DNA of 64,000 nucleotides from Patescibacteria group bacterium (GCA_041665085.1 JBAYJO010000004.1:20004-84003); one strand, 5' to 3'; positions 37,926-54,543 are shown, counted from the stretch's first letter. Numbers and translations are program-made. The notes: a model not told the origin generated them from the sequence alone.

Positions 37926-38846
37926 TCATTCGCTACTCTTATCCGAGTGAAGCTGGCAAGCCAAGCGCTCACGCGCTGCGAGCAAAGACCGAACTGTTTG
38001 CGGTTGCAAACCCGTACTCCAGTATTTCTTTCGATGCTCCCCATTCGCCACTTCGTCTAGGAACTGATCTATTGCGGGTCGAGAAGTAAACCAATGGCCG
38101 CTTTTGCGTTTGGCATGAAGCATTTTGCGGCCAAACATCGTTAGCAGCTTCTTGTATGTAATCTCGATCAGAAGTTCGTGAGCTTGTTCTGAAGAAAGTT
38201 CTCCCTCTTTCTGAAGCCAGTTTCGCTGACCGGCTTTTTGCCGCCTCTTCTTCTTCAGCTCTGGCATGATTTTGGCAATCTCTGGCAGATCCTCCCTCAT
38301 TACAGCCGAACGGCCGAAGATGTCCTCGCCTTTCGCTACTTTGAGAATATCTCTATTCATGTAGTTTCTCAAGCAGTTATCAGAAACACGAAGACCCAAT
38401 TTCTTCAACTCTACGACTGCAGTCGAATAGCTAACCCAGCAACAAACAGCAGTGCTTATACGTAGCGCTTCGTCTGCTTGGACAAACCAGTGCCCACCGC
38501 AAGTACCACGACGATGAGGGTCGAGAACCTTTACTCCAATGATCTTATTGGTATATACAAGATAATTGGGCTTCTTGATCCTGATCAGCTTAGCCAGATC
38601 CGCCAAAAAGCATCCTTCAGCGTGAGACTGTAAGAACTGCCAAACTGTATAAGGCAGGCCATTCACATATTGCACTGTTTCGTCTGGCAATATCGGTTCT
38701 GCACATGACTCGTCTTCATCTACCTCAAGTTCCTTTGCAACAATCGGAACAGGGGCAGACAACTTAGCTCGGCAGCCGATACACAAATCATTGCCTGGTA
38801 TAGCATCGCATAGACAAGATGCATAATTCTTGCATAGTCGAGACAT
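37926..38846 (-). CDS. hypothetical Cys-rich protein in GC-rich foreign patch
   Basis: 306-aa uninterrupted ORF in a patch of about 50% GC. N-terminal CxxxxxCxC...CxxC cluster. No family recognised. Confidence 0.5.
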   Translation of the reverse strand: MSRLCKNYASCLCDAIPGNDLCIGCRAKLSAPVPIVAKELEVDEDESCAEPILPDETVQYVNGLPYTVWQFLQSHAEGCFLADLAKLIRIKKPNYLVYTNKIIGVKVLDPHRRGTCGGHWFVQADEALRISTAVCCWVSYSTAVVELKKLGLRVSDNCLRNYMNRDILKVAKGEDIFGRSAVMREDLPEIAKIMPELKKKRRQKAGQRNWLQKEGELSSEQAHELLIEITYKKLLTMFGRKMLHAKRKSGHWFTSRPAIDQFLDEVANGEHRKKYWSTGLQPQTVRSLLAARERLACQLHSDKSSE

Positions 38847-38983
38847 AGTGAACGCCTCCGTTCGTTTGGTTTGAATAAACCTTAATTAAAATATACAGAA
38901 ATTTCAAGAAATAGCAATACGATAGCAATAATTTATATTCAAAAAATATTATTAAAAATTTCATAAATTTTATATATAATAGT

Positions 38984-39012
38984 TGGACAAAAAGCATATT
39001 AACTGGTATAAT
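38984..39012 (+). promoter_or_regulatory. sigma70-like promoter TGGACA-N17-TATAAT in the AT-rich divergent spacer of the GC-rich patch
   Basis: TGGACA at 38984-38989 and TATAAT at 39007-39012. RBS GAAGGAGG before ATG 39043. Confidence 0.5.
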
Positions 39013-39042
39013 ATATACATTGACTTGAAGGAGGACGATCAC

Positions 39043-39642
39043 ATGTCTCTGTGTTGCAGTAATTGTCAACGCGTTATGGCTCCAAGTACACAACTGCCGG
39101 GTACAGATGGTGTTATCATCACACCAAAACTAGTTGCCAACGGGTTCAAAGTCGAGCAGGGCAGCGATATCATTTGGCATCCGGTATATGCCACAGGACC
39201 GATTGAGGCAGCACTCTGTTTTGAGTGCGTGTTTTCAAAGGGTGTGGAGACTCAACCGGGAAAGATCGCTCTGATCCGAAGAATGTATAAACTCGAGGAT
39301 CATTACTGTGAGTTTCTCAACCTCGCAAAAACTCGCGGTTTGTCTGGACAAGAAAGTACAGAAAGCACTCTGCTAGGGAAGCAGATTACAGAGTTCTGTA
39401 GTCAGCTCGGATTGGCAGAATGTCTTTTCTGCCATGAAACATTGGAGACATTCAAGTCTCCAATGTTCATGGCAAAGATGTTCGATCGATACAAAGCAAG
39501 ACAGTCCCCCGGTTTTCAGCTGACCGGAAACTACCAATGGAGCAACTACGAAACAGGACACTACCTGTTCGGAGTCTGCTTCGGATGCTTCTCGAAACTC
39601 TACCTACCGTCATTGACCAAGCTTGGTTACCTGAAGTCCTAG
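39043..39642 (+). CDS. hypothetical Cys-rich protein (199 aa) in GC-rich foreign patch
   Basis: Strong RBS GAAGGAGG. Multiple CxxC pairs (CCSNC, CFEC, CLFC, CFGC). Hairpin terminator at 39671-39701. Confidence 0.55.
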   Translation: MSLCCSNCQRVMAPSTQLPGTDGVIITPKLVANGFKVEQGSDIIWHPVYATGPIEAALCFECVFSKGVETQPGKIALIRRMYKLEDHYCEFLNLAKTRGLSGQESTESTLLGKQITEFCSQLGLAECLFCHETLETFKSPMFMAKMFDRYKARQSPGFQLTGNYQWSNYETGHYLFGVCFGCFSKLYLPSLTKLGYLKS

Positions 39643-40285: not shown

Positions 40286-40347
40286 ATATACATCCCTGTT
40301 AAGTCTAGAATATAAGTAAATAAGCAAAGGCTAAAACATGGGAAAAA

Positions 40348-40860
40348 ATGAAAAAAGAAAAACACCATACGGTTTATGCATTTATAGATAGCCAAAATCT
40401 AAATCTAGCTATTCAGGATCTTGGCTGGAAATTAGATTATAAAAGGTTTAGAGTTTATATTGAAGATAAATTTGAAGTTAAAAAGACTTTTCTTTTTATT
40501 GGTTATATTAAAGGAAATGAAGTTTTATACGAAAATTTAAAGAGATCCGGTTATAATCTTATTTTTAAACCAACACTTGAGTTTAAAAAAGATAAAAAAG
40601 TTCAAACCAAAGGAAATGTTGACGCTGAGTTAGTTTTACATACTATGATTGAGCTCAATAATTTTGACAAAGCGGTTATTATTTCCGGTGATGGTGATTT
40701 TCATTGTCTTATAGAATATCTTTTAAGAAAAAATAAACTAAAATGCGTTATTGTGCCTAATTTTTACAAGTTTTCAGCTTTACTTAGAAAATTTATGAAG
40801 TATTTGTATTTTTTAAATAAATTAAAAAATAAACTGGAATATACAAAAGAGAGGCATTAA
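40348..40860 (+). CDS. NYN/LabA-like (DUF88) PIN-fold domain protein
   Basis: VYAFIDSQNL...GNVDAELVLHTM...VIISGDGDF pattern. Confidence 0.55.
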   Translation: MKKEKHHTVYAFIDSQNLNLAIQDLGWKLDYKRFRVYIEDKFEVKKTFLFIGYIKGNEVLYENLKRSGYNLIFKPTLEFKKDKKVQTKGNVDAELVLHTMIELNNFDKAVIISGDGDFHCLIEYLLRKNKLKCVIVPNFYKFSALLRKFMKYLYFLNKLKNKLEYTKERH

Positions 40861-41104
40861 CCTTCGGACAAAACCTTAGGTGTGGCCTCTCATCATGATT
40901 CTTAACTAAGAATAACAAATCAAAACAAAAAAGTCAATAGCAGTGGATAAAAATCAGATTGGTTGATTTTTGGTTGAAAAGTAGATTTGAATAGTAAATA
41001 ACTCAAAAAAACTCTTGTTTTGCATATGGTATAGGAGTAGAATTTGGGTAGTTAAATATATATAAAATGTTTATATTTAATATATTTTAAAATAAGGACT
41101 AAAT

Positions 41105-41377
41105 ATGGCAGAAATACATAAAAAAGTTTGGTGCGAATATTTTGAGAAAATAATCTCCGGAGAAAAAAAGCTGGAGCTTCGTCTAGCAGATTTTGAAGTA
41201 AACAAAGGAGATATCCTTGTCTTGGAAGAGTGGGACAAAGACACGAAGTCTTACACTGGGAGAAAAGTGGAAGCTACTGCAAATTATATTCTAAAGACAA
41301 AAGATGTTAATTTCTGGCCAAAAGAAGAAATCGAAAAATATGGTTATCAAATTATCCAATTTGAAATTAAGGACTAA
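41105..41377 (+). CDS. small ASCH/PUA-like protein (DUF3850-like)
   Basis: 90 aa. [19 protein letters not shown]...[10 protein letters not shown]...YTGRKVEA resembles DUF3850. Stop lies 3 bp before the hsdM start. Confidence 0.45.
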
Positions 41378-41379
41378 AT

Positions 41380-42933
41380 ATGGCAAAAAATAATAGTGCT
41401 AATGTGGGATTTGAAGAAAAACTTTGGGCGGCGGCTGATAAAATGCGCGGATCAATGGATCCGGCAGAATATAAGCACGTTGTTCTCGGACTTATTTTCT
41501 TGAAATATATTTCCGATTCATTTGAAAAGCGTCGACAAGATGTGATTAAGGAAGATGGGGAAGAATTTGTTGATGATCACGACGAATATACAATGAAAAA
41601 TGTTTTTTGGGTACCTATGATCGCACGCTGGTCAAATATTCGTGACAATGCCAAAAAATCAGAGATCGGTAAGCTGATCGACGATGCTATGTATGCCATT
41701 GAAAAAGAAAACTCTGACCTCAAAGGTGTACTTCCAAAAGACTATGCTCGCCCCGCGCTAGACAAACAACGATTGGGTGGTGTTATAGACATCATTTCCC
41801 AAGTTGACCTTCTTGAAAGTAATGGCAAAGATGTTCTCGGTCGAATTTATGAATATTTTCTTGGCCGATTTGCCGGCAGTGAAGGTAAGGGCGGTGGTGA
41901 ATTCTACACTCCACAATGCATTGTTAAACTACTCGTTGAAATGATTGAACCATACAGCGGCCGCGTTTATGATCCATGTTGTGGTAGCGGAGGCATGTTT
42001 ATTCAGTCAGAAATGTTCAACCGTAATCACGATGGCAAAAAAGATGACATGATTGTCTATGGTCAGGAATCAAATCATACCACATGGCGACTTTGTAAAA
42101 TGAATCTAGCCCTTCGTCACATTGACAGCTCAAATATAAAAAACGGTAACAGTTTCCACAATGATTCCCACCCGGATCTAAAAGCTGATTTTGTTTTAGC
42201 AAATCCACCTTTTAATGATAGTGACTGGGATGGCCAGCTTCTGCGAAACGATGTTCGCTGGAAATACGGCTTACCCCCAACTGGCAGTGCTAACTATGCT
42301 TGGATCCAGCACTTCATTTATCATCTCGCACCAACTGGCATCGCAGGTTTTGTAATGGCCAACGGCGCCATGTCATCTAATAGTTCCGGTGAAGGTGAAA
42401 TTCGCGCCAACCTAATTAAAGCGGGGCTTGTCGACTGTATTGTCGCCATGCCGGACAAATTGTTCTATTCGACTGGAATTCCATGTTCACTATGGTTTGT
42501 TTCGCGTGACAGATACGATCATAAATTTCGCAACCGTCATGACGAAATCCTCTTTATTGATGCTCGCAAAATGGGCACAATGGTTGACCGCCGCCATCGT
42601 GAGCTGACCGATGAAGATGTTAGAACTATCTCCGAGACATATCATAACTGGCGAAACCTTTCCCCCTCTGTCATCCCGAGCGAAGCCGAGGGATCCTTTA
42701 AATACGAAGACAAAAAAGGCTTCTGTAAGGCTGCCAAAATCGAAGAAGTTGAGAAAAATGGCTATGTCTTAACTCCCGGGCGTTATGTCGGCACAGAACT
42801 TGTCGAAGAGGATGACGAAGTTTTTGAAGAAAAAATGCAGCGGCTCACCGCGGAACTAAACCAGCAATTCGTCCAGTCCAAAGAATTAGAGGAAAAAATT
42901 AAAGAAAACCTTAAAAAAGTTATTGAAAATTAG
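41380..42933 (+). CDS. hsdM: type I restriction-modification system N6-adenine DNA methyltransferase subunit
   Basis: HsdM N-terminal domain. SAM motif [12 protein letters not shown]. Catalytic NPPFN. Confidence 0.92.
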
Positions 42934-42975
42934 ATTATTTATATTATCAATTTAGCCTGTATTTGATAATAAGTC

Positions 42976-43004
42976 TTGACATATTTGCAAATGTCAAATA
43001 TAAT
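42976..43004 (+). promoter_or_regulatory. Consensus sigma70 promoter TTGACA-N17-TATAAT embedded in the near-palindrome TTGACATATTTGCAAATGTCAA
   Basis: TTGACA at 42976-42981 and TATAAT at 42999-43004, 30 bp upstream of the fic ATG. Confidence 0.6.
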
Positions 43005-43033
43005 GGATATACTATTAACAGGAGTTTGCAAAA

Positions 43034-44164
43034 ATGAATAAAGAATATTCAGCAGGTCAATACATACAACAAAATGAATACAAGAGCTTTAGACCATCTT
43101 TAATAAATGGTGATTTTTCATGGAAAGAGAAAAAAATTAATGTTCTCCTAGAAGAAGCTACTAGGTTTCTTGGAGAGCTAAATGCATATTCCAAATTAAT
43201 ACCTGATGTAAATTTTTTCATAAAAATGAATGTGGCCAAGGAAGCCATTACATCCAGCCGCATTGAAGGAACAAAAACCCAAATTGACGAGGCATTATTG
43301 CCTCAAGAAGAAATTGACCCAGAAAAAAGAGATGATTGGGCTGAAGTTCAAAACTATATAAAAGCTATGAATTTCTCTATAGAGGAGCTAAAAAAAATTC
43401 CTCTATCAACAAGACTCATGAAAGAAGCACACAAAATTCTTCTTTCTGGAGTCAGGGGTAAATATAAAACACCCGGAGAATTAAGAACATCACAAAACTG
43501 GATTGGAGGATCCAATTTGAGTGATGCCTTTTTTGTTCCGCCTCACCATACAGAACTTCCAGATCTTTTAACTGACTTGGAGAAATTTTGGCATAATCGT
43601 GAATTAGAAATTCCTCAACTGATTAAAATTGCTATCAGCCATTATCAGTTTGAAACAATCCATCCATTTTTAGACGGTAACGGTAGAATCGGAAGATTAT
43701 TAATCACATTGCAACTGGTTGAACTAGGGTTTTTAGATAAACCCACTCTTTACCTTTCTGACTTTTTTGAAAAAAACAGAACATCCTACTACGACTCACT
43801 TTCAATGGTGAGGCAGACAAACGACATAGAACAATGGATCAAGTTTTTTCTCAATGGAATCATTCATACTTCAAAAAATGGAAAAGAAACTTTTGAAAAA
43901 ATCGTTACACTTCGTCAAAGCTATGAGAGTAAAATCATGAGATTAGGATCCAGAGCTAAAACCGGCCAAGAGTTAATGCTGGCATTATTTTCTAATCCCA
44001 TCATGAATTTAAATCAAATATCGGAAAAATTAGATATTTCTTATGCTACCGCAAACCGGCTGATATCTGATTTTGAAAAATTCAACATTGTCAGAGAAAT
44101 GACCGGTTTTTCAAGGAATAGATTATTTGTAATGGATGAGTATTTGAATTTATTTAAGAGGTAG
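43034..44164 (+). CDS. fic: Fic/DOC family protein (AMPylation motif [12 protein letters not shown]; inhibitory SxxxEG motif present)
   Basis: [14 protein letters not shown] is the canonical Fic motif HxFx(D/E)GNGRxxR. TSSRIEGT resembles the auto-inhibitory helix. C-terminal wHTH-like region. Confidence 0.88.
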
Positions 44165-44184
44165 AAACCAAAAGTAGGAAATCG

Positions 44185-44982
44185 ATGCAAAATGAGGAAA
44201 AACTAAACACAACTAATAATATTTCGGCCCCCATCGGCTTAGATTACTTTAGTGGGGTGAGTTTGTATTTACAGTTGTTTGTGAATTCCCAACACTTAGG
44301 CCAAGCAACCGGATTTGTTATCGAAAACAATAATAAAAAATATCTTATTGCTAATTGGCATGTAGTATCAGGTAGAGATACAATTACAGGTAAGCCGTTA
44401 TCAAAAACCGGTGGTCTTCCAGACAAAATAAATATTGCACACCACTCTAGTAGTGACTTTGGCACATGGTGGTTTATAAACGAGCCATTATATGATGGAG
44501 AAAAGCAGCTTTGGCTAGAGCATCCTAAGAGTACAGAATCGAACAGGATAGATGTTGTTGTGCTGCCTCTCACAAGGACAGAAGAGAAACTTGCTTTCGT
44601 CCCCCTAAACCTAAATCTCGCTAAATCAGATATGGTGGCACATCCTGCTCAAACAGTTTCAATTATTGGGTATCCGCTCGGCTTAAGCGCTGATGATAAA
44701 GTTCTCATTCCGATATGGAAAACGGGGCATATCGCTTCAGATGTAGAGTTAAATGAGAATTTCTTCCTAATTGACGCGACAACGAAAAGTGGAATGTCGG
44801 GTTCTCCAGTAATTATGCGTTCTTCAGGGGGATTTCAGACAAAAAATGGCTCCTGGATAATGGCAATGGCAGGGATGAGAGAGTTATTTCTGGGTGTATA
44901 TTCCGGAAGAATCCACGAACTTTCAGAAATAGGGAAAGTTTGGAAACCCAAACTGATCGAGGAAATATTAAATGCAAGATAA
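44185..44982 (+). CDS. cytoplasmic trypsin-like serine protease (chymotrypsin fold)
   Basis: No signal peptide. Putative triad His in ANWHVVSG, Asp in RIDVVVLPL, Ser in GMSGSPV. Confidence 0.55.
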   Translation: MQNEEKLNTTNNISAPIGLDYFSGVSLYLQLFVNSQHLGQATGFVIENNNKKYLIANWHVVSGRDTITGKPLSKTGGLPDKINIAHHSSSDFGTWWFINEPLYDGEKQLWLEHPKSTESNRIDVVVLPLTRTEEKLAFVPLNLNLAKSDMVAHPAQTVSIIGYPLGLSADDKVLIPIWKTGHIASDVELNENFFLIDATTKSGMSGSPVIMRSSGGFQTKNGSWIMAMAGMRELFLGVYSGRIHELSEIGKVWKPKLIEEILNAR

Positions 44983-46123
44983 CCAGACAAAATTTAAAGA
45001 AACTGAAGTTGGACTGATCCCGGAGGGTTGGGGGGTTTTGAAATTCGGGGATGTATCAAATTTTCGTTACGGAAAGATGCCAGAAAAAAACAAAATTACT
45101 TCAACAGGCTATCCGATATACTCTGGTTACAGAGTGGTCGGGAATTATTCTGAATGTATGTGTACCCAACCCAAGCTGATTATCGTGGCAAGAGGTGTTG
45201 GCGGCACAGGCGATGTAAAAATTTCACCACCAAATTGTTGGGTAACAAACTTGAGTATAATTGCTGATCTAGATGAAAAAATAATAAATAAACAATTTCT
45301 AAAATATTATTTTCACAGGGGTTTAAAAAGATTTGATAGTGGATCCGCTCAATCGCAGATCACAATAGGCGACTTAAATAATATCGAGTTAACATTGCCA
45401 CCCATCGAAGAGCAGCGAAAGATTGCGGAGGTTTTGGGGGCGCTGGATGATAAAATTGAATTGAATCGGAAAATGAATAAAACCCTCGAATCCATCGGCC
45501 AAGCCATTTTCAAACATACCTTTCGTCATTCTGAGCAAACCGAAGAATCTCTTAAACCGTTATCGGAATTCGGTCAAATCGTTTGTGGTAAAACTCCTTC
45601 GAAAGCCAAGTCGGAATATTTTGGCGGAGAAATACCCTTCATTAAAATTCCTGATATGCACGGACAAACTTTCATTCTAAAAACCGAGGATTCGTTAACC
45701 GAAGAGGGAAAAAATAGTCAGCCGAATAAAACAATCCCCACTGGTTCGATTTGTGTAAGTTGTATTGCTACGGTTGGACTAGTCTCAATCACTGAAAAGA
45801 ATTCACAAACAAATCAGCAGATAAATTCGATCGCTCCCTTTAAAAAAGAACTTACTTATTATTTGTATTTTTCTTTGAAGGAAATCGAGCAAGACATTAA
45901 AGATATGGCGAGTGGCGGCTCGGCGACACTAAATTTGAACACTGGTCATTTTTCAAATATTAAAATTGTTATGCCGGAGGATGAAGACTTGCATCGATTT
46001 GATAAAAAAATAAAACCACTCTTCGACCAAATTTTAAATAACATGAAACAAATCGAAACTTTATCGAAAATCCGCGATTCCCTATTACCAAGATTAATGA
46101 ATGGAAAGTTGAGATTGGGATGA
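44972..46123 (+). CDS. hsdS: type I restriction-modification system specificity subunit
   Basis: Two TRDs separated by the conserved LPPIEEQRKIAEVLGALDDKIELNRKMNKTLE. Overlaps the protease gene by 11 bp. Confidence 0.9.
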   Translation: MQDNQTKFKETEVGLIPEGWGVLKFGDVSNFRYGKMPEKNKITSTGYPIYSGYRVVGNYSECMCTQPKLIIVARGVGGTGDVKISPPNCWVTNLSIIADLDEKIINKQFLKYYFHRGLKRFDSGSAQSQITIGDLNNIELTLPPIEEQRKIAEVLGALDDKIELNRKMNKTLESIGQAIFKHTFRHSEQTEESLKPLSEFGQIVCGKTPSKAKSEYFGGEIPFIKIPDMHGQTFILKTEDSLTEEGKNSQPNKTIPTGSICVSCIATVGLVSITEKNSQTNQQINSIAPFKKELTYYLYFSLKEIEQDIKDMASGGSATLNLNTGHFSNIKIVMPEDEDLHRFDKKIKPLFDQILNNMKQIETLSKIRDSLLPRLMNGKLRLG

Positions 46124-46947
46124 AAAACCATGAAAAAGTTTTAGCTTTAACTCATAAAATCGTAATCACCGATGAATTCGAAAACAGAGTTAAGAAAGAA
46201 ATTATTGAACCAGTATTAGATCAGATGACTTTTACAGCGTTAAATTTTCAAAAATCAGATCCTAATAGCAAACTATCGATTGCTGAAAAATTTTTTCTTG
46301 ATGTAGACAAAGTTGTTTTTAGATTGTTGCAGTGCCATAAACACCAAAAGAATTATGACATTATAGAATCAGAAAGGATTAAGGAGCTGAACGCTGACAT
46401 ACAAAAAACAACAAAGTTTATTGATGAGTGTTGGAGGCCGCTCGAATTAAATTGTGAAATTGATGCATTTCTAACTAAGTGGAAATCGTCACTTGATGCT
46501 TTAGCTAAAACATTAATCCCTCTTTATGGGATAAACTCTAAGACATGGAGCGATAAAGGAAAAAAAATAATTAATCAGTTAAACAATTTATCAGCAGAAA
46601 AAGTTAAAAAAATACAACCATTGATTAACATTATTGAAGAAAATAAGGGTCAGATTGGTTCAATAATTGATCTAAGAGATAAAGTTGTACATTATGATAC
46701 TGAATGTTTAACACCTTTTCACTACAGGCTCAAAGAGAAAAAACTTCATAACCCAAGTTTAATATGGGATGGCAATGTCTATATGCCCCAAGACTTCATG
46801 ACACAAGCATCTGAGTATTTACTAGATTTCACGAGGGAGTTTATCGTTAAATCTATAAATGGTTTTGTTGAGGCTTTGTATATTGTCGTCACAACCGACG
46901 GTCACCAATGGTTTATGCCACCAGATAAGATCAAGGAGTCGAAATGA
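46120..46947 (+). CDS. hypothetical protein embedded between hsdS and hsdR; possible HEPN-like (Rx4H) domain
   Basis: 275 aa, mostly helical by composition. RDKVVH fits Rx4-6H. 4-bp overlaps with both neighbours. Confidence 0.5.
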
Positions 46948-49900
46948 AATACACTGAATCGTCATTAGAAGAAGCGACTAGGGAATGGTTTGAGGAACTT
47001 GGCTATCAAGTCATTTATGGGCCGGATATTGAGCCGGAAAGTGAAAAACCGGAGCGAAAGGATTTTTCACAAGTGGTTTTGGAAGGAAGGCTCCGATCTG
47101 CAATCGAAAGAATAAATTCTGATATTCCGGCTGATGCTCTGGATGAAGCTTTTAAAAAAGTTGTAAATGTAACTCATACCACATCGCTTTTGGTGTCGAA
47201 TAATCAGATATTCCATAAATATTTAGTTGGCGGTGTTGATGTTGAATATCAAAGAAAAGACGGCTCTATTGCAGGCGATAAAGTTTGGCTCGTTGATCGA
47301 AAAAATATTGAGAATAATGATTGGGTTTGGCTTAATCAGTTTACAATTGTAGAAAATAGTAATCGTCGACCGGATGTCGTTATTTTTGTGAACGGTTTGC
47401 CACTGGCCGTTTTTGAACTAAAGAATTTAGCAGATGAAAATGTTGGTATTAAAGAAGCATTTAATCAGATTCAAACCTATAAACAAGATATTCCATCACT
47501 ATTTGCTTACAATGAACTAGCAATTATTTCCGATGGCCCGGAGGCAAAAATCGGATCCATTACTTCTGACACAGATCGCTTTATGCGCTGGAGAAGTGTT
47601 GATGGGGCAGAATTAGCATCTGACGTAATTCCTCAACTTGAAGTATTGATTAAAGGGGTTTTTGATAAAGAGCGATTGCTTGATTTGATTTGCAATTTTA
47701 GTGTTTTTAACACGATCAAGAAAGATTCGGAAGAAAAAATTATTAAAATCATCCCGGCCTATCATCAATATTTTGCAACAAATAAAGCCTTAGAAAGCAC
47801 ATTGGCGGCTACTTCTGAAAATGGTGACAGGCGCGCCGGAGTGGTGTGGCATACTCAAGGAAGTGGCAAGAGTTTGACGATGGCTTTTTTTGCCGGCAAG
47901 TTAATTGATCGACTGAATAATCCGACTATCGTCGTTTTGACAGATAGGAATGATTTGGATGATCAGCTTTTTGATACATTTTCAAAATGTAAAGATTTAT
48001 TGAAACAAAAACCGGTCCAAGCAGCCAATCGTAAACATTTACGCGAGCTTTTGAAAGTTGCGAGTGGCGGAGTAGTATTTACAACAATTCAGAAATTTTT
48101 GCAAAAAGGATTTCTGGACAAAATGCTTTTAACTGGTCGGCGCAATGTGGTGGTGATTGCCGATGAAGCGCACAGAAGCCAATATGATTTTATAGATGGC
48201 TTTGCCAGAAGCATGCATGAAGCATTGCCGAATGCGTCATTTATTGGTTTTACCGGAACCCCGCTTTCTTCTGCTGACAAAGACACCGAGCGAGTTTTTG
48301 GCAAATATGTTGATGTTTATGACATTACTCAAGCAGTGGCCGACAAAGCGACGGTGCCGATTTATTATGAAGCCAGATTGGCGAAAATTAATTTGCTTGA
48401 ATCAGAAAAACCAAAAATCGATGCAGATTTTAATGATATTACAGAAGATGAAGAACCAGAAATGGTTGAGAAGTTAAAAAGCAAATGGGCGCGGCTTGAG
48501 GCGATGGTTGGAAGCGACAAAAGAATTAAGCAAATCGCCAAAGATGTGGTAGAGCATTTTGGAAATAGGCAAAATGTAATGAATGGCAAGGGCATGATCG
48601 TGGTAATGAGTCGAAGAATCGCCACTGATTTGTATGATGAAATTATTAAATTAAAACCGGAGTGGCACCAAGACTCAAATGAAAAAGGATTTTTGAAAGT
48701 TGTGATGACCGGTTCGGCCTCTGATCCTTTAAATTTTCAAAGGCATATTCGTAACAAAGAAGAACTACACAAAATGGCAGATCGAATGAAAGATCCAGAA
48801 AACGAATTACAGCTCGTGATTGTGCGTGATATGTGGCTGACTGGTTTTGATGTGCCGAGTTTGCATACGATGTATATTGATAAGCCAATGAAAGGTCATG
48901 GTCTAATGCAGGCGATCGCTAGAGTTAATAGAGTTTATAGAGATAAACCAGGTGGTCTGATTGTTGATTATTTGGGTATTGCACCACAATTGAAAGAAGC
49001 ATTGGCGGATTATTCTCAAAAAGATCAGGGGAACACTGCCATTGATCAGGAAGCAGCGGTTTCTGTGATGCTAGAGAAATTTGAAGTGATGCAGGGAATG
49101 TTTCATGATTTTAATTATGTAAAGTATTTCAAAATGAGCGCTTCACAGAAAACAAGCTTTTTTGGTGATGCAATGGAATTTGTTTTGACGCTTGATCCAG
49201 TTGACGATGAAGCGAAGAAAAGATTTGTCAAAGCAGTGACAGAATTATCTAAAGCATTTGCTCTGGCTGTACCGCATGAAAAAGCACTTGCGATTAAAGA
49301 TCATGTCGGATTTTTCCAAGCACTGCGGGCGCATGTAAAGAAATTATCACCTGTAAATGGTCCAACTGAAGAAGATTATGACATGGCAATTAAACAGATC
49401 GTTTCTGATTCGATCGCTTCGGGTGAGATTATTGATGTATTTACTGCAGCCGGGCTAGATAAGCCGATGGTTTCAATTTTGTCCGATGAGTTTTTGGAGG
49501 AAGTGAGAGGACTTGGCAGACAAAATGTTGCTTTGGAAATATTAAAAAAATTATTGAATGACGAGATTAAATCTTTTATGCGAAAAAATGTTGTAAAGGG
49601 GCGATCGTTTTCAGACATGCTAGAAAAAACGATTAAGGCTTATCAAAATCGAACCATTGAAGCAGCACAAGTTATTTCTGAACTGATCAAATTAGCAAAA
49701 GAACTCCGGGGAGAAGTTGAAAGAGGAGCGGAAACTGGACTGTCAGATGACGAGATCGCTTTTTATGATGCTCTAGCCGATAATGAGAGCGCAAAATTGG
49801 AGCTTGGCGATGAAACATTGAAAAAGATCTCTCGGGAATTGGTTCAGATGATGCGGGAGAACACGACAATTGATTGGACTTTACGAGACAGTGTAAAAGC

Positions 49901-50030
49901 CAAGATGAGAATATTTATTAAAAAATTATTGAAAAAATATGACTATCCGCCAGACAAACAAGAAGGCGCGACGCAGTTGGTATTATTACAGGCAGAAACC
50001 GTTTGTAAGGATTGGGTAGGAAAGGAATAA
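46944..50030 (+). CDS. hsdR: type I restriction enzyme R subunit (helicase/endonuclease)
   Basis: N-terminal nuclease domain. SF2 helicase motifs ([12 protein letters not shown] in [11 protein letters not shown]). Confidence 0.93.
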
Positions 50031-50031
50031 C

Positions 50032-50790
50032 ATGTCCGAATATTACAAAGCAAATCGAACAAGAAATATATTTGATCCGAAAACTCAAGAAGTTTTTAAA
50101 CTAAGTCGGTCGAAATTAGAACTTTTTACCGAATGTCCACGCTGTTTTTATATTGATCGCCGGCTCGGAGTCGGCAGACCTCCCGGATTTCCATTTAACC
50201 TAAATACAGCAGTTGATACCTTGCTCAAAAAGGAATTTAATATTCATCGCGCAAAAGGGGAGACTCATCCGCTGATTGAAAAATATGATGTTGACGCTCG
50301 ACCGGTTCCGCATGAGAGCTTGGACAAATGGCGAGAAAACTTTGTTGGCATTCAGTATTTACACAAACCAACCAATCTAATGATCACCGGTGCAATTGAT
50401 GACCTTTGGATCAATTCAAAGGGTGAATATATAGTCGTAGATTACAAATCAACCAGCAAAGAAGAAGAAATTACAGCGCTCGACAAAGACTGGCACGATG
50501 GATACAAACGCCAGATGGAAATATACCAGTGGCTCCTTAGAAAAAATGGACTAAAAGTATCAAATACCGGTTATTTTGTTTATTGCAACGGACGAACTGA
50601 TCTTGAGGCATTTGACGCGAAACTAGAATTTGATATTACTTTAATTCCATATATTGGCAACGACTCTTGGATTGAAAAAACCATCGCTGATGCACATATC
50701 TGCCTTTGCTCTGATTCTATTCCCGAAGCTAACCCAGAATGTGATTATTGCAATTACATCGAAGCCATTCAAGAAATTAATAAAATATAA
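50032..50790 (+). CDS. PD-(D/E)XK nuclease with 4-Cys cluster (Cas4/RecB-nuclease-like, DUF83-like)
   Basis: N-terminal CPRC. GAIDDLW...VVDYKS (D...D-x-K). C-terminal CLC...CDYC. Starts 2 bp after the hsdR stop. Confidence 0.5.
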   Translation: MSEYYKANRTRNIFDPKTQEVFKLSRSKLELFTECPRCFYIDRRLGVGRPPGFPFNLNTAVDTLLKKEFNIHRAKGETHPLIEKYDVDARPVPHESLDKWRENFVGIQYLHKPTNLMITGAIDDLWINSKGEYIVVDYKSTSKEEEITALDKDWHDGYKRQMEIYQWLLRKNGLKVSNTGYFVYCNGRTDLEAFDAKLEFDITLIPYIGNDSWIEKTIADAHICLCSDSIPEANPECDYCNYIEAIQEINKI

Positions 50791-50860
50791 GCTGTTGCCT
50801 ACCAATAGATTCGTTCACAATTGTTAAAATAATAAAATAAAATAAAATAAAAACAAAGAG

Positions 50861-51640
50861 TTGCATATGGAAAATACGGAAAAACCACAAGAAAAAGAAT
50901 ACGATGATTGGAAAGCCCCAGAGGTAAGTGAAAAACCAATTCAACCTTCTATTGCTGGGGAGGAACCAACAGACACCCAATTGGTTATCGAGACAAAAAA
51001 GAAAGAAGAATCGGAGCGAGAAATATCTGAAGCAAGAAGCCAATTGGCACAAATTACCGAATCACAACCAGACAACTACTCATCTGGCACACGACTTGTT
51101 AAAGAAGTGGAGAAGATCTTAGAAGATCCTGATAAATATGTTGGTAGAGGTGCCGAAAAAATAGTACTTGACCATCCTTCTGACCCCGACAAAGTAGTAG
51201 CTAAATTTCATGCCAAACCTGATGTTGAGTACATGAAACAACAATATTATCTCAACAAATTACTTCATATTTTTCTCCCTCATAATATTCCCGACGTGCA
51301 CATGGTAGTAACAGATCCGCCGCTCCTCGTCTCGGATAAAATCAAACCGCCAGAAAAAATTAATCCAGTAAGTGCTTTTCTAAAAAAATCTCTCGGTCGA
51401 ATTTTATTAAAACGTAAGTTAAATAAACTGGATGTGTTCATTGACGGCAATGATTGTAATTTAATTTTTGATCAAAATGGTTCACTTAATTATGTTGACT
51501 CTCCAACAGGAGGATCTAACCTGGACAAATTAAGAAAAGTAGCTGACCAGCGTTTACACGATGAAGATCTTGAGAAAGCGCACCAATACATTGATCGACT
51601 AGAACTGTGGAAAAGAAGAAAACGTGATTTCAAGCTGTGA
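50861..51640 (+). CDS. hypothetical protein with acidic N-terminal region and a possible atypical kinase-like core
   Basis: VGRGAEKIVLD...VVAKF resembles a glycine-rich loop plus VAxK. Otherwise unrecognised. Confidence 0.45.
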   Translation: MHMENTEKPQEKEYDDWKAPEVSEKPIQPSIAGEEPTDTQLVIETKKKEESEREISEARSQLAQITESQPDNYSSGTRLVKEVEKILEDPDKYVGRGAEKIVLDHPSDPDKVVAKFHAKPDVEYMKQQYYLNKLLHIFLPHNIPDVHMVVTDPPLLVSDKIKPPEKINPVSAFLKKSLGRILLKRKLNKLDVFIDGNDCNLIFDQNGSLNYVDSPTGGSNLDKLRKVADQRLHDEDLEKAHQYIDRLELWKRRKRDFKL

Positions 51641-51906
51641 TAATTTATATTATAAAATATAAAAGTAAAAAATTTCCTAATTTTAATGGATAAGAAATGA
51701 GAGAAAATCATTGGAGTGTAATAAATGCTGAGCTAGAGACTCTCCTCATTATTAAAAAATTAAGCTGAAATGAATCAATAAAATGAGAAGAAAATTGATA
51801 AACACAAGTTAGCTGAAATTACACTAAAGCTATAGAAAAGATAATTTACTAATACAAAAAGCCCACGGATCACTTCGAAGGCCTTGTAGAATTGCGAGGT
51901 TGAAGA

Positions 51907-52332
51907 TCAACCTCTACGACATCTTGTAGCTGTGACTTTGGTCTTTGTGCCAGCTTCAGCTTGAGATTCAGCTGATAACGCCTTGCTTGCAGCAATAAGG
52001 TCATCGAGCTTATTGCGAGAAGTGAACACTGGTATCCACTTGACTCTCAATATCTTCAACACAAATGCCGCTTGTTTATTGGAAGACAACAAAGCAATAT
52101 AGACTTCTTTGTCCTTTGCTTTTTCCGTTGCCGCCGCTAAAATAGCGACTCCAAAATGATCCAAGTATGAGACCTGATTCAGATCGATTACTATGTAATC
52201 GCCACTCATTGCTCATTGGACTTTCTGAAGCAATCGCGATCTGATCAAAGTGAGGTCGGGATTAGTCTTGATGATCTCACCTTTCCACAAGACCAATAGT
52301 TCCTTACCTGTAAAAAGCAAGGGGTTGTTCAT
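51907..52332 (-). pseudogene. STAS-domain (anti-sigma-factor antagonist-like) gene interrupted by an in-frame TGA
   Basis: Minus strand reads ATG(52330-52332) MNNPLLFTGKELLVLWKGEIIKTNPDLTLIRSRLLQKVQ-TGA(52213-52215)-AMSGDYIVIDLNQVSYLDHFGVAIL. The whole matches one STAS domain. The local GC is elevated. Confidence 0.45.
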
Positions 52333-52603
52333 TACCTTTTTTCAAGACTTGTTCATTGCTCCCATCCTTATCTGTCAACAACTAACGATAGTGTTGGAGA
52401 CTGTACTTGTCTAAAAATCAGACAAGGCAATCCCCAAAGCATTTGATAATGTACGACTACAATTTATCATATTTTAAGTTAAAAAAAATACTCATTAATA
52501 CTTTTTGATACTTAATTAAAATTGAGTTATTGTTACTTTAGTTTTAGAATGTAAATAATTATAAATAAAATTAATTGGCTTTAAAATATATTAAGGAAAT
52601 AAT

Positions 52604-53521
52604 ATGTATGAATACAAAAAACCAACTCCAATAATCATTAAATTAACTGATGAAGAAGGAATTAGATTAAGACAACAAGCATGCGATTATATTTCTAGCA
52701 ATCAAAACAAAAAAGGAGCTGAAAGAGGAAGCAAGGATCAACAAGGTTTTGGTGCGTTAGCAGAAATGGTTATTAGAAATCAATTAGGAATGGCTGAAAT
52801 CAATGATTCCACGCATCCACTATCATATGATATTTTGCTGTCCGGAAAAATTAAAGCAGATGTTAAATGTCGAGGAGGTGCGCTCCCATTCAAGGAAGAA
52901 TATATTGGTGGAGATGGATTTCCAAGAGAAGCGAAACACAATTTATTTGCTCGACAAATTTTTGATGAAAATTTGGATACCGATATTTATATAATGACTC
53001 ATTTAGAACACCCTAAAAATAGTGAACTCCCAGGAACCAAAAGACAAAAGAAATGGATTCTTTACATCTGTGGATGGGTGTCAAAAGAAAGAGCAAAAAA
53101 TGAGGGAGTATTTTTACCACGAGGATCATTAACAGAACAAGGTAACAAGTGGTTCCCGTATCGAGGACAAGAAATTGAGTATTATCATAAAAATCTCAAC
53201 GGGCTTGAAAAAATAGTTGATTTATTAAAAATTGATGAAGCTGATGTTCAGAAAGATAGAAATAAAATTGGTGATTTAAATTTAACTTCTGTTGATGCCC
53301 TTAGAATTACTTTTGATTTAGTAGGCAGGGGAATATTAGATAAAAAATATATCGATTTTATTAAAAGTATTACAAATTTATCAGAAACAGTCAGACCAAT
53401 ATTACACATAAATCAATATTTTCATCTTTTAAAATGGCTTGAGGAGAAAAATCAGATAGGAGTCGATGAGTCGAAAAAATTAAGCAAAATAATCGAAGAA
53501 ATACCTTATAGTGGGATTTAA
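52604..53521 (+). CDS. putative type II restriction endonuclease partner of the adjacent methyltransferase
   Basis: Convergent to the MTase gene, overlapping by 4 bp. Possible PD-(D/E)xK signature (D...ADVK). No family confidently recognised. Confidence 0.4.
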   Translation: MYEYKKPTPIIIKLTDEEGIRLRQQACDYISSNQNKKGAERGSKDQQGFGALAEMVIRNQLGMAEINDSTHPLSYDILLSGKIKADVKCRGGALPFKEEYIGGDGFPREAKHNLFARQIFDENLDTDIYIMTHLEHPKNSELPGTKRQKKWILYICGWVSKERAKNEGVFLPRGSLTEQGNKWFPYRGQEIEYYHKNLNGLEKIVDLLKIDEADVQKDRNKIGDLNLTSVDALRITFDLVGRGILDKKYIDFIKSITNLSETVRPILHINQYFHLLKWLEEKNQIGVDESKKLSKIIEEIPYSGI

Positions 53522-54543
53522 TTAACCAGTCTCATGGAATTTATTTGCGATTGTTCAAGTGCTTTAGTAATTCTGTTATTACAAATATCAATATAATCTA
53601 CTTTTTTTTGTTTATGTAAATAAGTTTCTTGGTTTTTCTCAATTCCAATAAATTTTCTACCTTCCAAAATGGCTGAGACCAAAAAACTTCCACTGCCGCA
53701 AGCATTATCAAGAACAATTTCATTACCATTTGTAAATGTTTTGATTAAATATCGTCCAAGTTCAATTGGTTTTTGTGTTGGATGAAAAACTTCTCCTTCA
53801 CTTTCCGCCGTTTTAAAATAAACAACATCATTGGGATATCTGTCGCCACTGCTTTTAACTTCGACGGAGCCAAAATCACCATAACTACCTGTAAGCTGAT
53901 TCTTTCTGTATCCCTTATTAAACGGTAGCCCCGGAGTCATTTGAGGATTATATTTGGGTTGTTTTTTATAAAAAATACATATATCCTCATGTTTTCTCAA
54001 AGGTTGTTTTTTAGCATTTAAAAAATTTGTTGCCTTTGATTTTACCCAGACTAATTTATATTTAAATAGTGCAGTATTGGAAAGTATAAGTTTTGCAGTG
54101 AAAATACCTTGAGAAGTTAGCACAATAGCTCCACGATCTTTAATAATTCTTTCATATTGAGCCCAAAGCTTATCTAAAGGAATAACGCTGTCCCAATTAT
54201 TTTGAGTCGTTCCATAAGGAAGATCACACAATATCATATCAACCGAATTATTTGGCAACAATGGTAAGACATCAAGACAATCGCCTTGAAAAACATGATT
54301 TAAAAAATAATCAATTTTGTTCTGATAAACAAAATCGTTTTTTACATTAATAATTTGAGAATTTGCAAAATTTTCCCCTTCGATAAAATCAAGAATACTA
54401 TTACCCTTAAATCGACGAAGATTATTTATTTTAAGCGAAGGTATCTTATTTTCTGCTATATATCGTCTAATAGTGCCATCGGAAACTTTTAAATAATTCG
54501 CAATCTCATCAACTGTATATAATTTATCTTTAATAATTTCCAT
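53518..54543 (-). CDS. beta-class N4-cytosine/N6-adenine DNA methyltransferase with N-terminal HTH
   Basis: Motif IV DLPYG precedes the C-terminal motif I LDNACGSGSF. The N-terminus TVDEIANYLKVSDGTIRRYI is a MerR/excisionase-like HTH. Confidence 0.8.
   Translation of the reverse strand: MEIIKDKLYTVDEIANYLKVSDGTIRRYIAENKIPSLKINNLRRFKGNSILDFIEGENFANSQIINVKNDFVYQNKIDYFLNHVFQGDCLDVLPLLPNNSVDMILCDLPYGTTQNNWDSVIPLDKLWAQYERIIKDRGAIVLTSQGIFTAKLILSNTALFKYKLVWVKSKATNFLNAKKQPLRKHEDICIFYKKQPKYNPQMTPGLPFNKGYRKNQLTGSYGDFGSVEVKSSGDRYPNDVVYFKTAESEGEVFHPTQKPIELGRYLIKTFTNGNEIVLDNACGSGSFLVSAILEGRKFIGIEKNQETYLHKQKKVDYIDICNNRITKALEQSQINSMRLVN

Follow-up and report, generated by a model that had tools for sequence, protein, structure and literature searches.

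Defence genes are known to be embedded in the operons of type I restriction-modification (R-M) systems, a pattern termed 'guilt-by-embedding', and genes found inside BREX, DISARM and type I R-M systems were the source of the PDC families (Payne et al. 2024, bioRxiv 10.1101/2024.01.29.577857). TgvAB is embedded in a type I R-M system of Vibrio VPI-2 (PMC11411939), and DarTG2 lies between hsdS and hsdR in enteropathogenic Escherichia coli (EPEC) (PMC12255303). R-M systems accompanied by HEPN and DOC proteins were described as a 'three-level' defence, and 16 R-M-linked HEPN clades were recognized (Anantharaman et al. 2013, PMC3710099). Here we describe an operon of this kind at positions 41105–50790 of a 64,000-nucleotide stretch of DNA from an uncultured Patescibacteria group bacterium (GCA_041665085.1, JBAYJO010000004.1:20004-84003), referred to below as the window. 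Genes for a Fic AMPylase, a trypsin-like serine protease and an HEPN-like protein of 275 aa lie among its hsd genes, and a gene for a Cas4-like nuclease follows hsdR.

We interpreted the locus as a chromosomal defence island, in which a type I R-M backbone carries two exchangeable slots with autonomous single-gene modules, and we consider this interpretation probable. Slot 1 is the hsdM/hsdS junction, and slot 2 is the hsdS/hsdR junction. The locus is a new instance of a well-documented pattern, and leaves current concepts unchanged. It adds a new lineage and a new family to those known for guilt-by-embedding and for the combination of R-M, HEPN and Fic/Doc, and it offers, at both junctions of a single type I R-M lineage, a clean natural example of swappable slots. 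The immune systems of Patescibacteria have been little studied.

As in the operons with embedded defence genes, autonomous genes are nested in hsd, the hsdS/hsdR slot is used and its contents vary among relatives; the protease also matches a PDC family derived from such embedded genes. The differences are the presence of two slots and three cargo genes at once, the host, which is represented by a metagenome-assembled genome (MAG) of Patescibacteria, and a slot-2 cargo that is unrecognized by the models of PADLOC, Pfam and NCBIfam.

With the three-level loci and the R-M-linked HEPN clades such as ApeA, the operon shares an HEPN protein and an NMPylating toxin of the Fic/Doc family beside R-M genes, and the same logic has been proposed, by which DNA, RNA and protein targets would be attacked in parallel. 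The three-level loci usually contain fusions to ATP-binding cassette (ABC) ATPases of the PrrC/RloC type, whereas a stand-alone HEPN protein and a trypsin-like protease are found here. In PrrC-EcoprrI, too, an HEPN nuclease gene (in our case a predicted nuclease) lies within a type I hsd operon. Unlike PrrC and RloC, the 275-aa protein has no N-terminal ABC-ATPase; it has no sequence similarity to PrrC, and its family also occurs with type II systems.

Variable cargo slots in a type I R-M operon

All eight open reading frames (ORFs) were found on the + strand, and their order, coordinates and overlaps were those given in an initial annotation made from the sequence (Table 1). By domains and motifs, the backbone is a complete and intact type I R-M system. 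HsdM contained HsdM_N and N6_Mtase (4.9e-107) in Pfam and matched MTase_I of PADLOC (2.7e-208), with DPCCGSGG at residue 198 and NPPF at residue 275. HsdS matched Methylase_S in two stretches (Pfam, 2.7e-44), i.e. two target-recognition domains, and Specificity_I over residues 19–382 (PADLOC, 4e-87). HsdR contained HSDR_N (3.8e-52), SWI2_SNF2 (1.8e-80), T1R_D3-like and T1RH-like_C (4.8e-123) domains, with a QGSGK motif and DEAH at residue 407.

Operons of the same R-M lineage were found at four other loci (L002, L003, L006 and L066), which we call sister operons. HsdM was 72% identical to those of L002 and L006, HsdR 66–87% identical (L002, L006 and L066), and the HEPN-like protein 77–82%. HsdS was about 30% identical to those of the sister loci, except in its conserved central and C-terminal regions. 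This divergence was expected from its role as the specificity subunit.

The cargo of the sister operons was different. The order of genes is DUF3800, hsdM, a 252-aa ORF, a 195-aa ORF, hsdS, HEPN, hsdR in L002 and L003; hsdM, PIN_12, hsdS, a 207-aa ORF, HEPN, hsdR in L006; and DUF3800, Ymh, hsdS, RT(UG21), hsdR, a 184-aa ORF, nuclease in L066. Fic and the protease recurred in none of the four. In L066 (2769–4343), the hsdS/hsdR slot is filled by a defence-type reverse transcriptase (PADLOC RT_UG21, 2.3e-78), with an HsdR that is 87% identical. Because the sister operons carry different cargo, both the hsdM/hsdS and the hsdS/hsdR junctions are variable cargo slots. The first gene of the operon, which matched DUF3850 (1.3e-16) and ASCH (5.6e-5) in Pfam, is also not kept in the sister operons, and L002 and L003 carry the DUF3800 gene in its place.

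Relics flanking the cargo reveal how the HEPN cassette moved. In locus L001 (9975–10865), an 81%-identical HEPN copy follows a RadC-C5-methyltransferase/HpaII-type system. Around this copy, about 25 nt are left from the 3' end of hsdS and about 35 nt from the 5' end of hsdR, with the start codon destroyed. Because these hsdS and hsdR relics flank it, the cassette came out of a type I slot. Read from the sequence, L001 shows that the cassette moved and that it persists without type I subunits. In L006 (4271–4390), a relic of the HsdS C-terminus (48% identity over 50 aa) lies between the inserted 207-aa gene and the HEPN gene. This suggested insertion through recombination in the conserved 3' region of hsdS. 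As a separate observation, genes for a serine recombinase and a PLD-family protein are found a few kb upstream of the HEPN copy in L001.

The genes of the operon are closely packed. The protease gene and hsdS overlap by 11 nt, and the 275-aa gene overlaps both hsdS and hsdR by 4 nt (ATGA in both cases). The gaps are 1 nt between hsdR and the nuclease gene, 2 nt between the DUF3850 gene and hsdM, 20 nt between fic and the protease gene, and 100 nt between hsdM and fic. The genes are presumably co-transcribed, and by its ATGA overlaps the 275-aa gene is predicted to be translationally coupled to hsdS and hsdR.

The initial annotation went on to take the packing as implying functional coupling. 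This was not supported, as close spacing is generic in related genomes and the contents of the slots differ in the sister operons. The nuclease gene, for example, lies within 30 nt of whichever same-strand gene precedes it in 40 of 67 related loci, and packing alone therefore does not imply coupling.

Table 1. Features of the operon, with positions in the window.
Feature	Position	Strand	Description
DUF3850/ASCH gene	41105–41377	+	90 aa; PUA-like accessory gene
hsdM	41380–42933	+	Methyltransferase subunit; type I backbone
fic-cassette promoter/operator-like region	42942–43036	+	Putative operator
fic	43034–44164	+	Slot-1 cargo A; SoFic-type Fic AMPylase
Trypsin-like serine protease gene	44185–44982	+	Slot-1 cargo B; 265 aa; PADLOC PDC-S45
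hsdS	44972–46123	+	Specificity subunit; backbone; variable target-recognition domains
HEPN-like gene	46120–46947	+	Slot-2 cargo; 275 aa; unnamed family
hsdR	46944–50030	+	Restriction/translocase subunit; backbone
Cas4-like PD-(D/E)XK/Cys-cluster nuclease gene	50032–50790	+	252 aa; right-hand island edge

The HEPN-like protein of slot 2

The new element of the locus is the 275-aa protein, which on the evidence of its sequence belongs to an unnamed HEPN family that travels with R-M systems. It is entered in NCBI as 'MAG: hypothetical protein WCW17_02485 [Patescibacteria group bacterium]'. An HEPN-like nature had been guessed from an Rx4H motif, with profile searches and structure prediction as the means of checking it. 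The profile searches gave no match to any Pfam, NCBIfam or PADLOC model; it was the motif, conserved through the family, and the predicted structure that bore the guess out.

A word-indexed search of 5.8 billion proteins returned 5 matches, which were the protein itself and 4 close relatives. When 1.84 billion representatives were searched in full with HMMER, 180 clusters of the family were obtained (50% clustering), nearly all of about 270 aa. In an alignment of 81 sequences (about 20% mean identity), K122, D126, R186 and H191 were the sole invariant residues. D187 was at least 90% conserved, which gives R-D-x-x-x-H, the HEPN Rx4-6H signature; in the 275-aa protein it reads R186-D-K-V-V-H191. 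Among these 81 relatives, HEPN_Apea was reached by 3 (1.7e-3) and HEPN_Cthe2314 by 2 (2.5e-5), all of them sub-threshold matches of distant members. PDC-S12 was matched by 3.

AlphaFold prediction with five close homologues gave a predicted local distance difference test (pLDDT) score of 38.5. With the 81 diverse HMMER sequences, a confident model was obtained. It is a four-helix up-and-down bundle that resembles solved HEPN domains. A Foldseek search with the model against PDB and BFVD gave no match below 1e-3, and a sequence-profile search of PDB with the family gave nothing meaningful. The protein lacks an ATPase domain in sequence and model alike. We predict that it is a metal-independent RNase cutting host or phage RNA (tRNA or mRNA). 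The family, with about 180 representatives, four invariant residues and a confident model, is unannotated and missed by current defence-finders.

No locus of the family was found in GTDB genomes or IMG/VR, and none in plasmids (tblastn). Its gene contexts come from few metagenome contigs. Besides the loci described above, a 33%-identical relative in L150 follows genes for a helix-turn-helix (HTH) protein, a 326-aa protein and a methyltransferase-specificity (M-S) fusion. A 27%-identical relative (P0010) has smpB and a GIY-YIG gene as neighbours, and a 38%-identical one (P0007) is on a short contig of 2.4 kb with small ORFs; no R-M gene adjoins either. The HEPN gene is the only cargo of the operon that is linked to R-M elsewhere, namely to type I, HpaII-type and M-S fusion systems. 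Control of the HEPN protein through AMPylation by Fic, in the style of HepT/MntA, was considered and rejected, Fic being absent from every other HEPN locus.

Fic, the protease and the Cas4-like nuclease

SoFic is a characterized stand-alone toxin that AMPylates EF-Tu, and for SoFic/EcSofic both EF-Tu AMPylation and phage protection are known. In E. coli, a 47-aa gene downstream of Sofic controls it, possibly by affecting protein stability. SoFic is reported to bind DNA of its own promoter, at a distance within 100 bp from the start codon (bioRxiv 10.64898/2026.07.09.737422).

The Fic protein of slot 1 has the same architecture, with Fic_N (1.2e-22), Fic (7.2e-19) and a C-terminal winged helix-turn-helix (wHTH) domain (HTH_24) in Pfam. 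PADLOC SoFic matched it at full length (3.8e-120; residues 15–375 on profile positions 5–359 of 361). This substantiated the assignment as a Fic AMPylase. The catalytic motif HxFx(D/E)GNGRxxR is present at residue 210, and the class II inhibitory motif (S/T)xxxE(G/N) at residue 74 (SSRIEG), N-terminal to the Fic core, as in SoFic. The score against the NCBIfam SoFic equivalog was 170.7 bits, under the cut-off of 550, and the protein is therefore SoFic-like rather than an equivalog. It also differs from SoFic in that its gene sits inside an hsd operon and is followed by the gene for a 265-aa protease, with no small AS1-like ORF downstream.

A consensus promoter had been noted before fic, and a perfect sigma-70 sequence, TTGACA-17-TATAAT (12/12), was found in the hsdM-fic gap at 42976–43004. 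It was the sole one in the 12.4 kb scanned (40300–52700). Promoter-like sites as a whole were no more numerous in this region than in shuffles (48 versus 39 +/- 6.4). The promoter is rich in palindromes. An inverted repeat, TTGACAT/ATGTCAA, covers the -35 box and the spacer. The palindrome TTTGCAAA occurs twice, about 41 bp apart, in the spacer (about 42984–42991) and just before the fic start (about 43025–43032), and a perfect 9-nt inverted repeat, TATTATCAA/TTGATAATA, spans 42942–42971. By analogy with SoFic, which is known to bind its own promoter, these palindromes may be operator sites for the wHTH domain of Fic.

The second gene of slot 1 had been taken for a trypsin-like protease, and a profile search agreed. 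It matched Trypsin_2 of Pfam (5.4e-11) and PDC-S45 of PADLOC (6.7e-21, residues 35–242). The triad H59/D123/S205 is intact, and invariant in 33 aligned sequences, and a hydrophobic leader is absent. From these features, the product is a predicted cytoplasmic trypsin-like serine protease of the PDC-S45 type. Its match to PDC-S45 places its family among the single-gene candidates already catalogued.

More than 1200 homologues were found, each of about 255 aa. Its context was sampled in 57 loci from GTDB species representatives of many phyla. No hsd gene was found within 10 kb on either side in any of the 57 (tblastn with HsdM, HsdS and HsdR of the window). A Fic homologue adjoined the protease gene in one (L047), where the two genes are convergent and not in one operon. 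The flanking genes were heterogeneous by Pfam and mostly housekeeping, with sporadic TIR_2, AAA_21, XhoI and AbiGi. On these neighbourhoods, a role of the protease in regulating Fic, in the manner of AS1, was also rejected. Protease homologues were found on 92 plasmids, and a plasmid copy in Photobacterium lies 4 kb from hsdR. One homologue, 36% identical, is carried by the Klebsiella plasmid NZ_CP146997.1 (L156) and by 68 other Klebsiella plasmids, mostly predicted to be conjugative; on L156, the one plasmid inspected, a dGTP triphosphohydrolase gene (dgt) precedes it by about 1.3 kb.

The last gene encodes a Cas4-like nuclease. PDDEXK_1 was matched at 1.1e-13, and the motifs D123/D124, D137-Y-K139 and Q161xxxY165 and the cysteines C35, C38, C224, C237 and C240 are each at least 97% conserved in 83 sequences. 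The proposed Cas4-like nature was borne out, though the scores were below the Cas4 thresholds (16.1 bits for Cas_Cas4 PF01930, cut-off 22.7; 29.8 for TIGR00372, cut-off 65). The protein shares D..D-x-K, QxxxY and conserved cysteines at both termini with solo Cas4-like and RecB-family nucleases. It differs in these scores, in its cysteine pattern (CxxC ... C ... CxxC), in the lack of a CRISPR context, no cas family having been found among its neighbours, and in being extremely conserved and widespread in Patescibacteria.

Its gene had been described as fused to the end of hsdR, and was found to be a separate ORF 1 nt away. It had also been counted as the fourth embedded cargo gene. Fic, the protease and the HEPN gene stand as cargo; the nuclease gene is a widespread, conserved gene of Patescibacteria. 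It has more than 8000 homologues, and the best 120 are 71–82% identical and come from many lineages of the candidate phyla radiation (CPR), including Buchananbacteria, Berkelbacteria, Azambacteria and Paceibacterota. Between the window and a Berkelbacteria MAG (L067, 8001–8774), the nuclease is 76% identical, SecY 54% and Map 37%. This excess identity may come from strong purifying selection or from horizontal spread. A phage or mobile-element origin was dismissed on 1 match in IMG/VR against more than 539 in metagenomes.

Type I genes lie upstream of the nuclease gene in about 5 of 84 loci, and in L002 the gene after hsdR is not the nuclease. Because the nuclease gene is usually packed tightly behind whatever precedes it, its 1-nt spacing from hsdR says little. 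At its -1 and -2 positions, a mixture of defence and mobile-element families was found, in which ResIII/HsdR, Eco57I and N6 methyltransferases, AAA_21/AAA_15 (AbiEii-like ATPases) and RVT_1 were enriched, and further GmrSD, HNH and TnsA-like families (loci L066–L069 and L070–L149). The +1 and +2 neighbours were mostly housekeeping genes. The nuclease gene is best read as no R-M cargo, and as a conserved gene flanking a recurrent landing site of defence genes. Its 5' flank may be a defence-island hotspot, or the gene an anchor, in Patescibacteria, which suggests that new defence genes could profitably be sought in this flank. An NYN-domain (LabA-like) nuclease gene lies directly upstream of the operon (40348–40860), and in L081, L096 and L125 the nuclease likewise has NYN homologues in its vicinity.

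Competing readings and the edges of the island

In the reading that we favour, the type I enzyme would restrict unmodified DNA, and the modules in the slots would work in parallel as further layers, with common transcription and separate mechanisms. In slot 1, the SoFic-type Fic protein, expressed from its own strong promoter, would by homology AMPylate EF-Tu and arrest translation, and may regulate itself through the palindromes in that promoter. The solitary cytoplasmic PDC-S45-type protease would add a layer of proteolysis. In slot 2, the HEPN protein would cleave RNA as an abortive-infection back-up. To judge from the relics in L001 and L006, recombination in the conserved hsd flanks would be the route by which cargo is exchanged. 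The Cas4-like nuclease would stand outside the logic of the operon, with defence genes repeatedly gathering beside it.

Several points weigh against autonomous modules. All HEPN homologues of at least 33% identity with informative context adjoin an R-M gene, and this adjacency, together with the ATGA coupling, makes a genuine functional dependence on R-M conceivable; the HEPN contexts form a small sample of about five independent loci. PDC-S45 has only candidate status, and no demonstration of its defence activity was found. Sigma-70 consensus matching is not validated for Patescibacteria. The neighbour statistics come from a simple ORF caller and lists of the top 25 families.

The dependence on R-M could take the form of a guard, as in PrrC, with the R-M enzyme holding the HEPN protein inactive until a phage anti-restriction protein disables the enzyme and releases the RNase. 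The R-M complex would then be the sensor, as in the initial annotation, but for the HEPN protein and not for Fic or the protease. We regard this as unlikely, although the recurrent R-M adjacency and the translational coupling of the HEPN gene keep it alive. The gene overlaps hsdS on one side and hsdR on the other, the R-M lineage has conserved this arrangement, and homologues adjoin the HpaII-type system of L001 and the M-S fusion of L150. The HEPN domain that serves PrrC as its nuclease is under control of this kind, and such control was also proposed for the 16 R-M-linked HEPN clades (PMC3710099). On the other hand, the ABC-ATPase regulatory domain of PrrC is absent, a UG21 reverse transcriptase fills the same slot in a sister operon, and no R-M gene is near the distant members P0010 and P0007. 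Since the HEPN copy in L001 survives with neither HsdS nor HsdR, beside a type II system to which the hsd genes are unrelated, a specific protein contact with type I subunits is improbable. A general form of the idea, in which the 275-aa protein is a new minimal, ATPase-less class of HEPN guard for R-M or, as a related possibility, the nuclease defines a dedicated defence-island landing site or is a shared effector in Patescibacteria, seems to us decidedly unlikely. If it were true, the guard would monitor whichever restriction enzyme is co-translated with it, be it type I, HpaII-type or an M-S fusion, and would fire once phage anti-restriction proteins disable that enzyme.

Sharing of the nuclease by the cassette on its 5' side, for example to degrade DNA ends made by restriction in organisms without RecBCD, would make it functionally part of the operon, but is very unlikely in our view. 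Such a partnership would fit the co-orientation and tight spacing of the nuclease gene, the enrichment of defence families upstream with housekeeping genes downstream, and an identity above that of SecY across distant lineages. Most loci, however, have no recognizable defence gene upstream, the partners are too diverse for one mechanism, and L002 lacks the nuclease after hsdR; a housekeeping repair nuclease flanking an insertion hotspot would account for its high conservation and its abundance. The least credible reading, to which we assign almost no weight, is that of the initial annotation, in which Fic is paired with the protease as a protease-gated toxin or abortive-infection module wired to the R-M complex as a sensor. 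The position of the two genes, 20 nt apart behind one strong promoter, the downstream control of E. coli Sofic and the Fic gene beside the protease homologue in L047 would agree with it. The neighbourhood comparison that had been proposed spoke against it: the protease was found without Fic within 10 kb in 56 of the 57 loci and without hsd in all 57, the two genes in L047 are convergent, the sister R-M operons lack both genes, and SoFic and PDC-S45 are catalogued as single-gene modules.

Around the operon, the upstream part of the window looks like an rpoBC/ribosomal-protein cluster by ORF sizes and order, with secY alone checked by homology. No tRNA or Rfam RNA gene that would mark integration was found in the window. 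At 37926–39642, just after an Asn/Asp-tRNA synthetase gene, there are ORFs of 306 aa (- strand) and 219 aa (Cys-rich, + strand), without a Pfam or NCBIfam match. Their G+C content is 43–47%, against about 33% in the rest of the window. This segment is probably foreign DNA and the left edge of the island. On the other side, at 52604–54543, two convergent genes overlap by 4 nt and encode a 305-aa protein of no matching family and a 341-aa DNA methyltransferase with HTH_17 and N6_N4_Mtase domains. The pair is a probable type II R-M system, and with it the island would extend over about 17 kb (37.9–54.5 kb).

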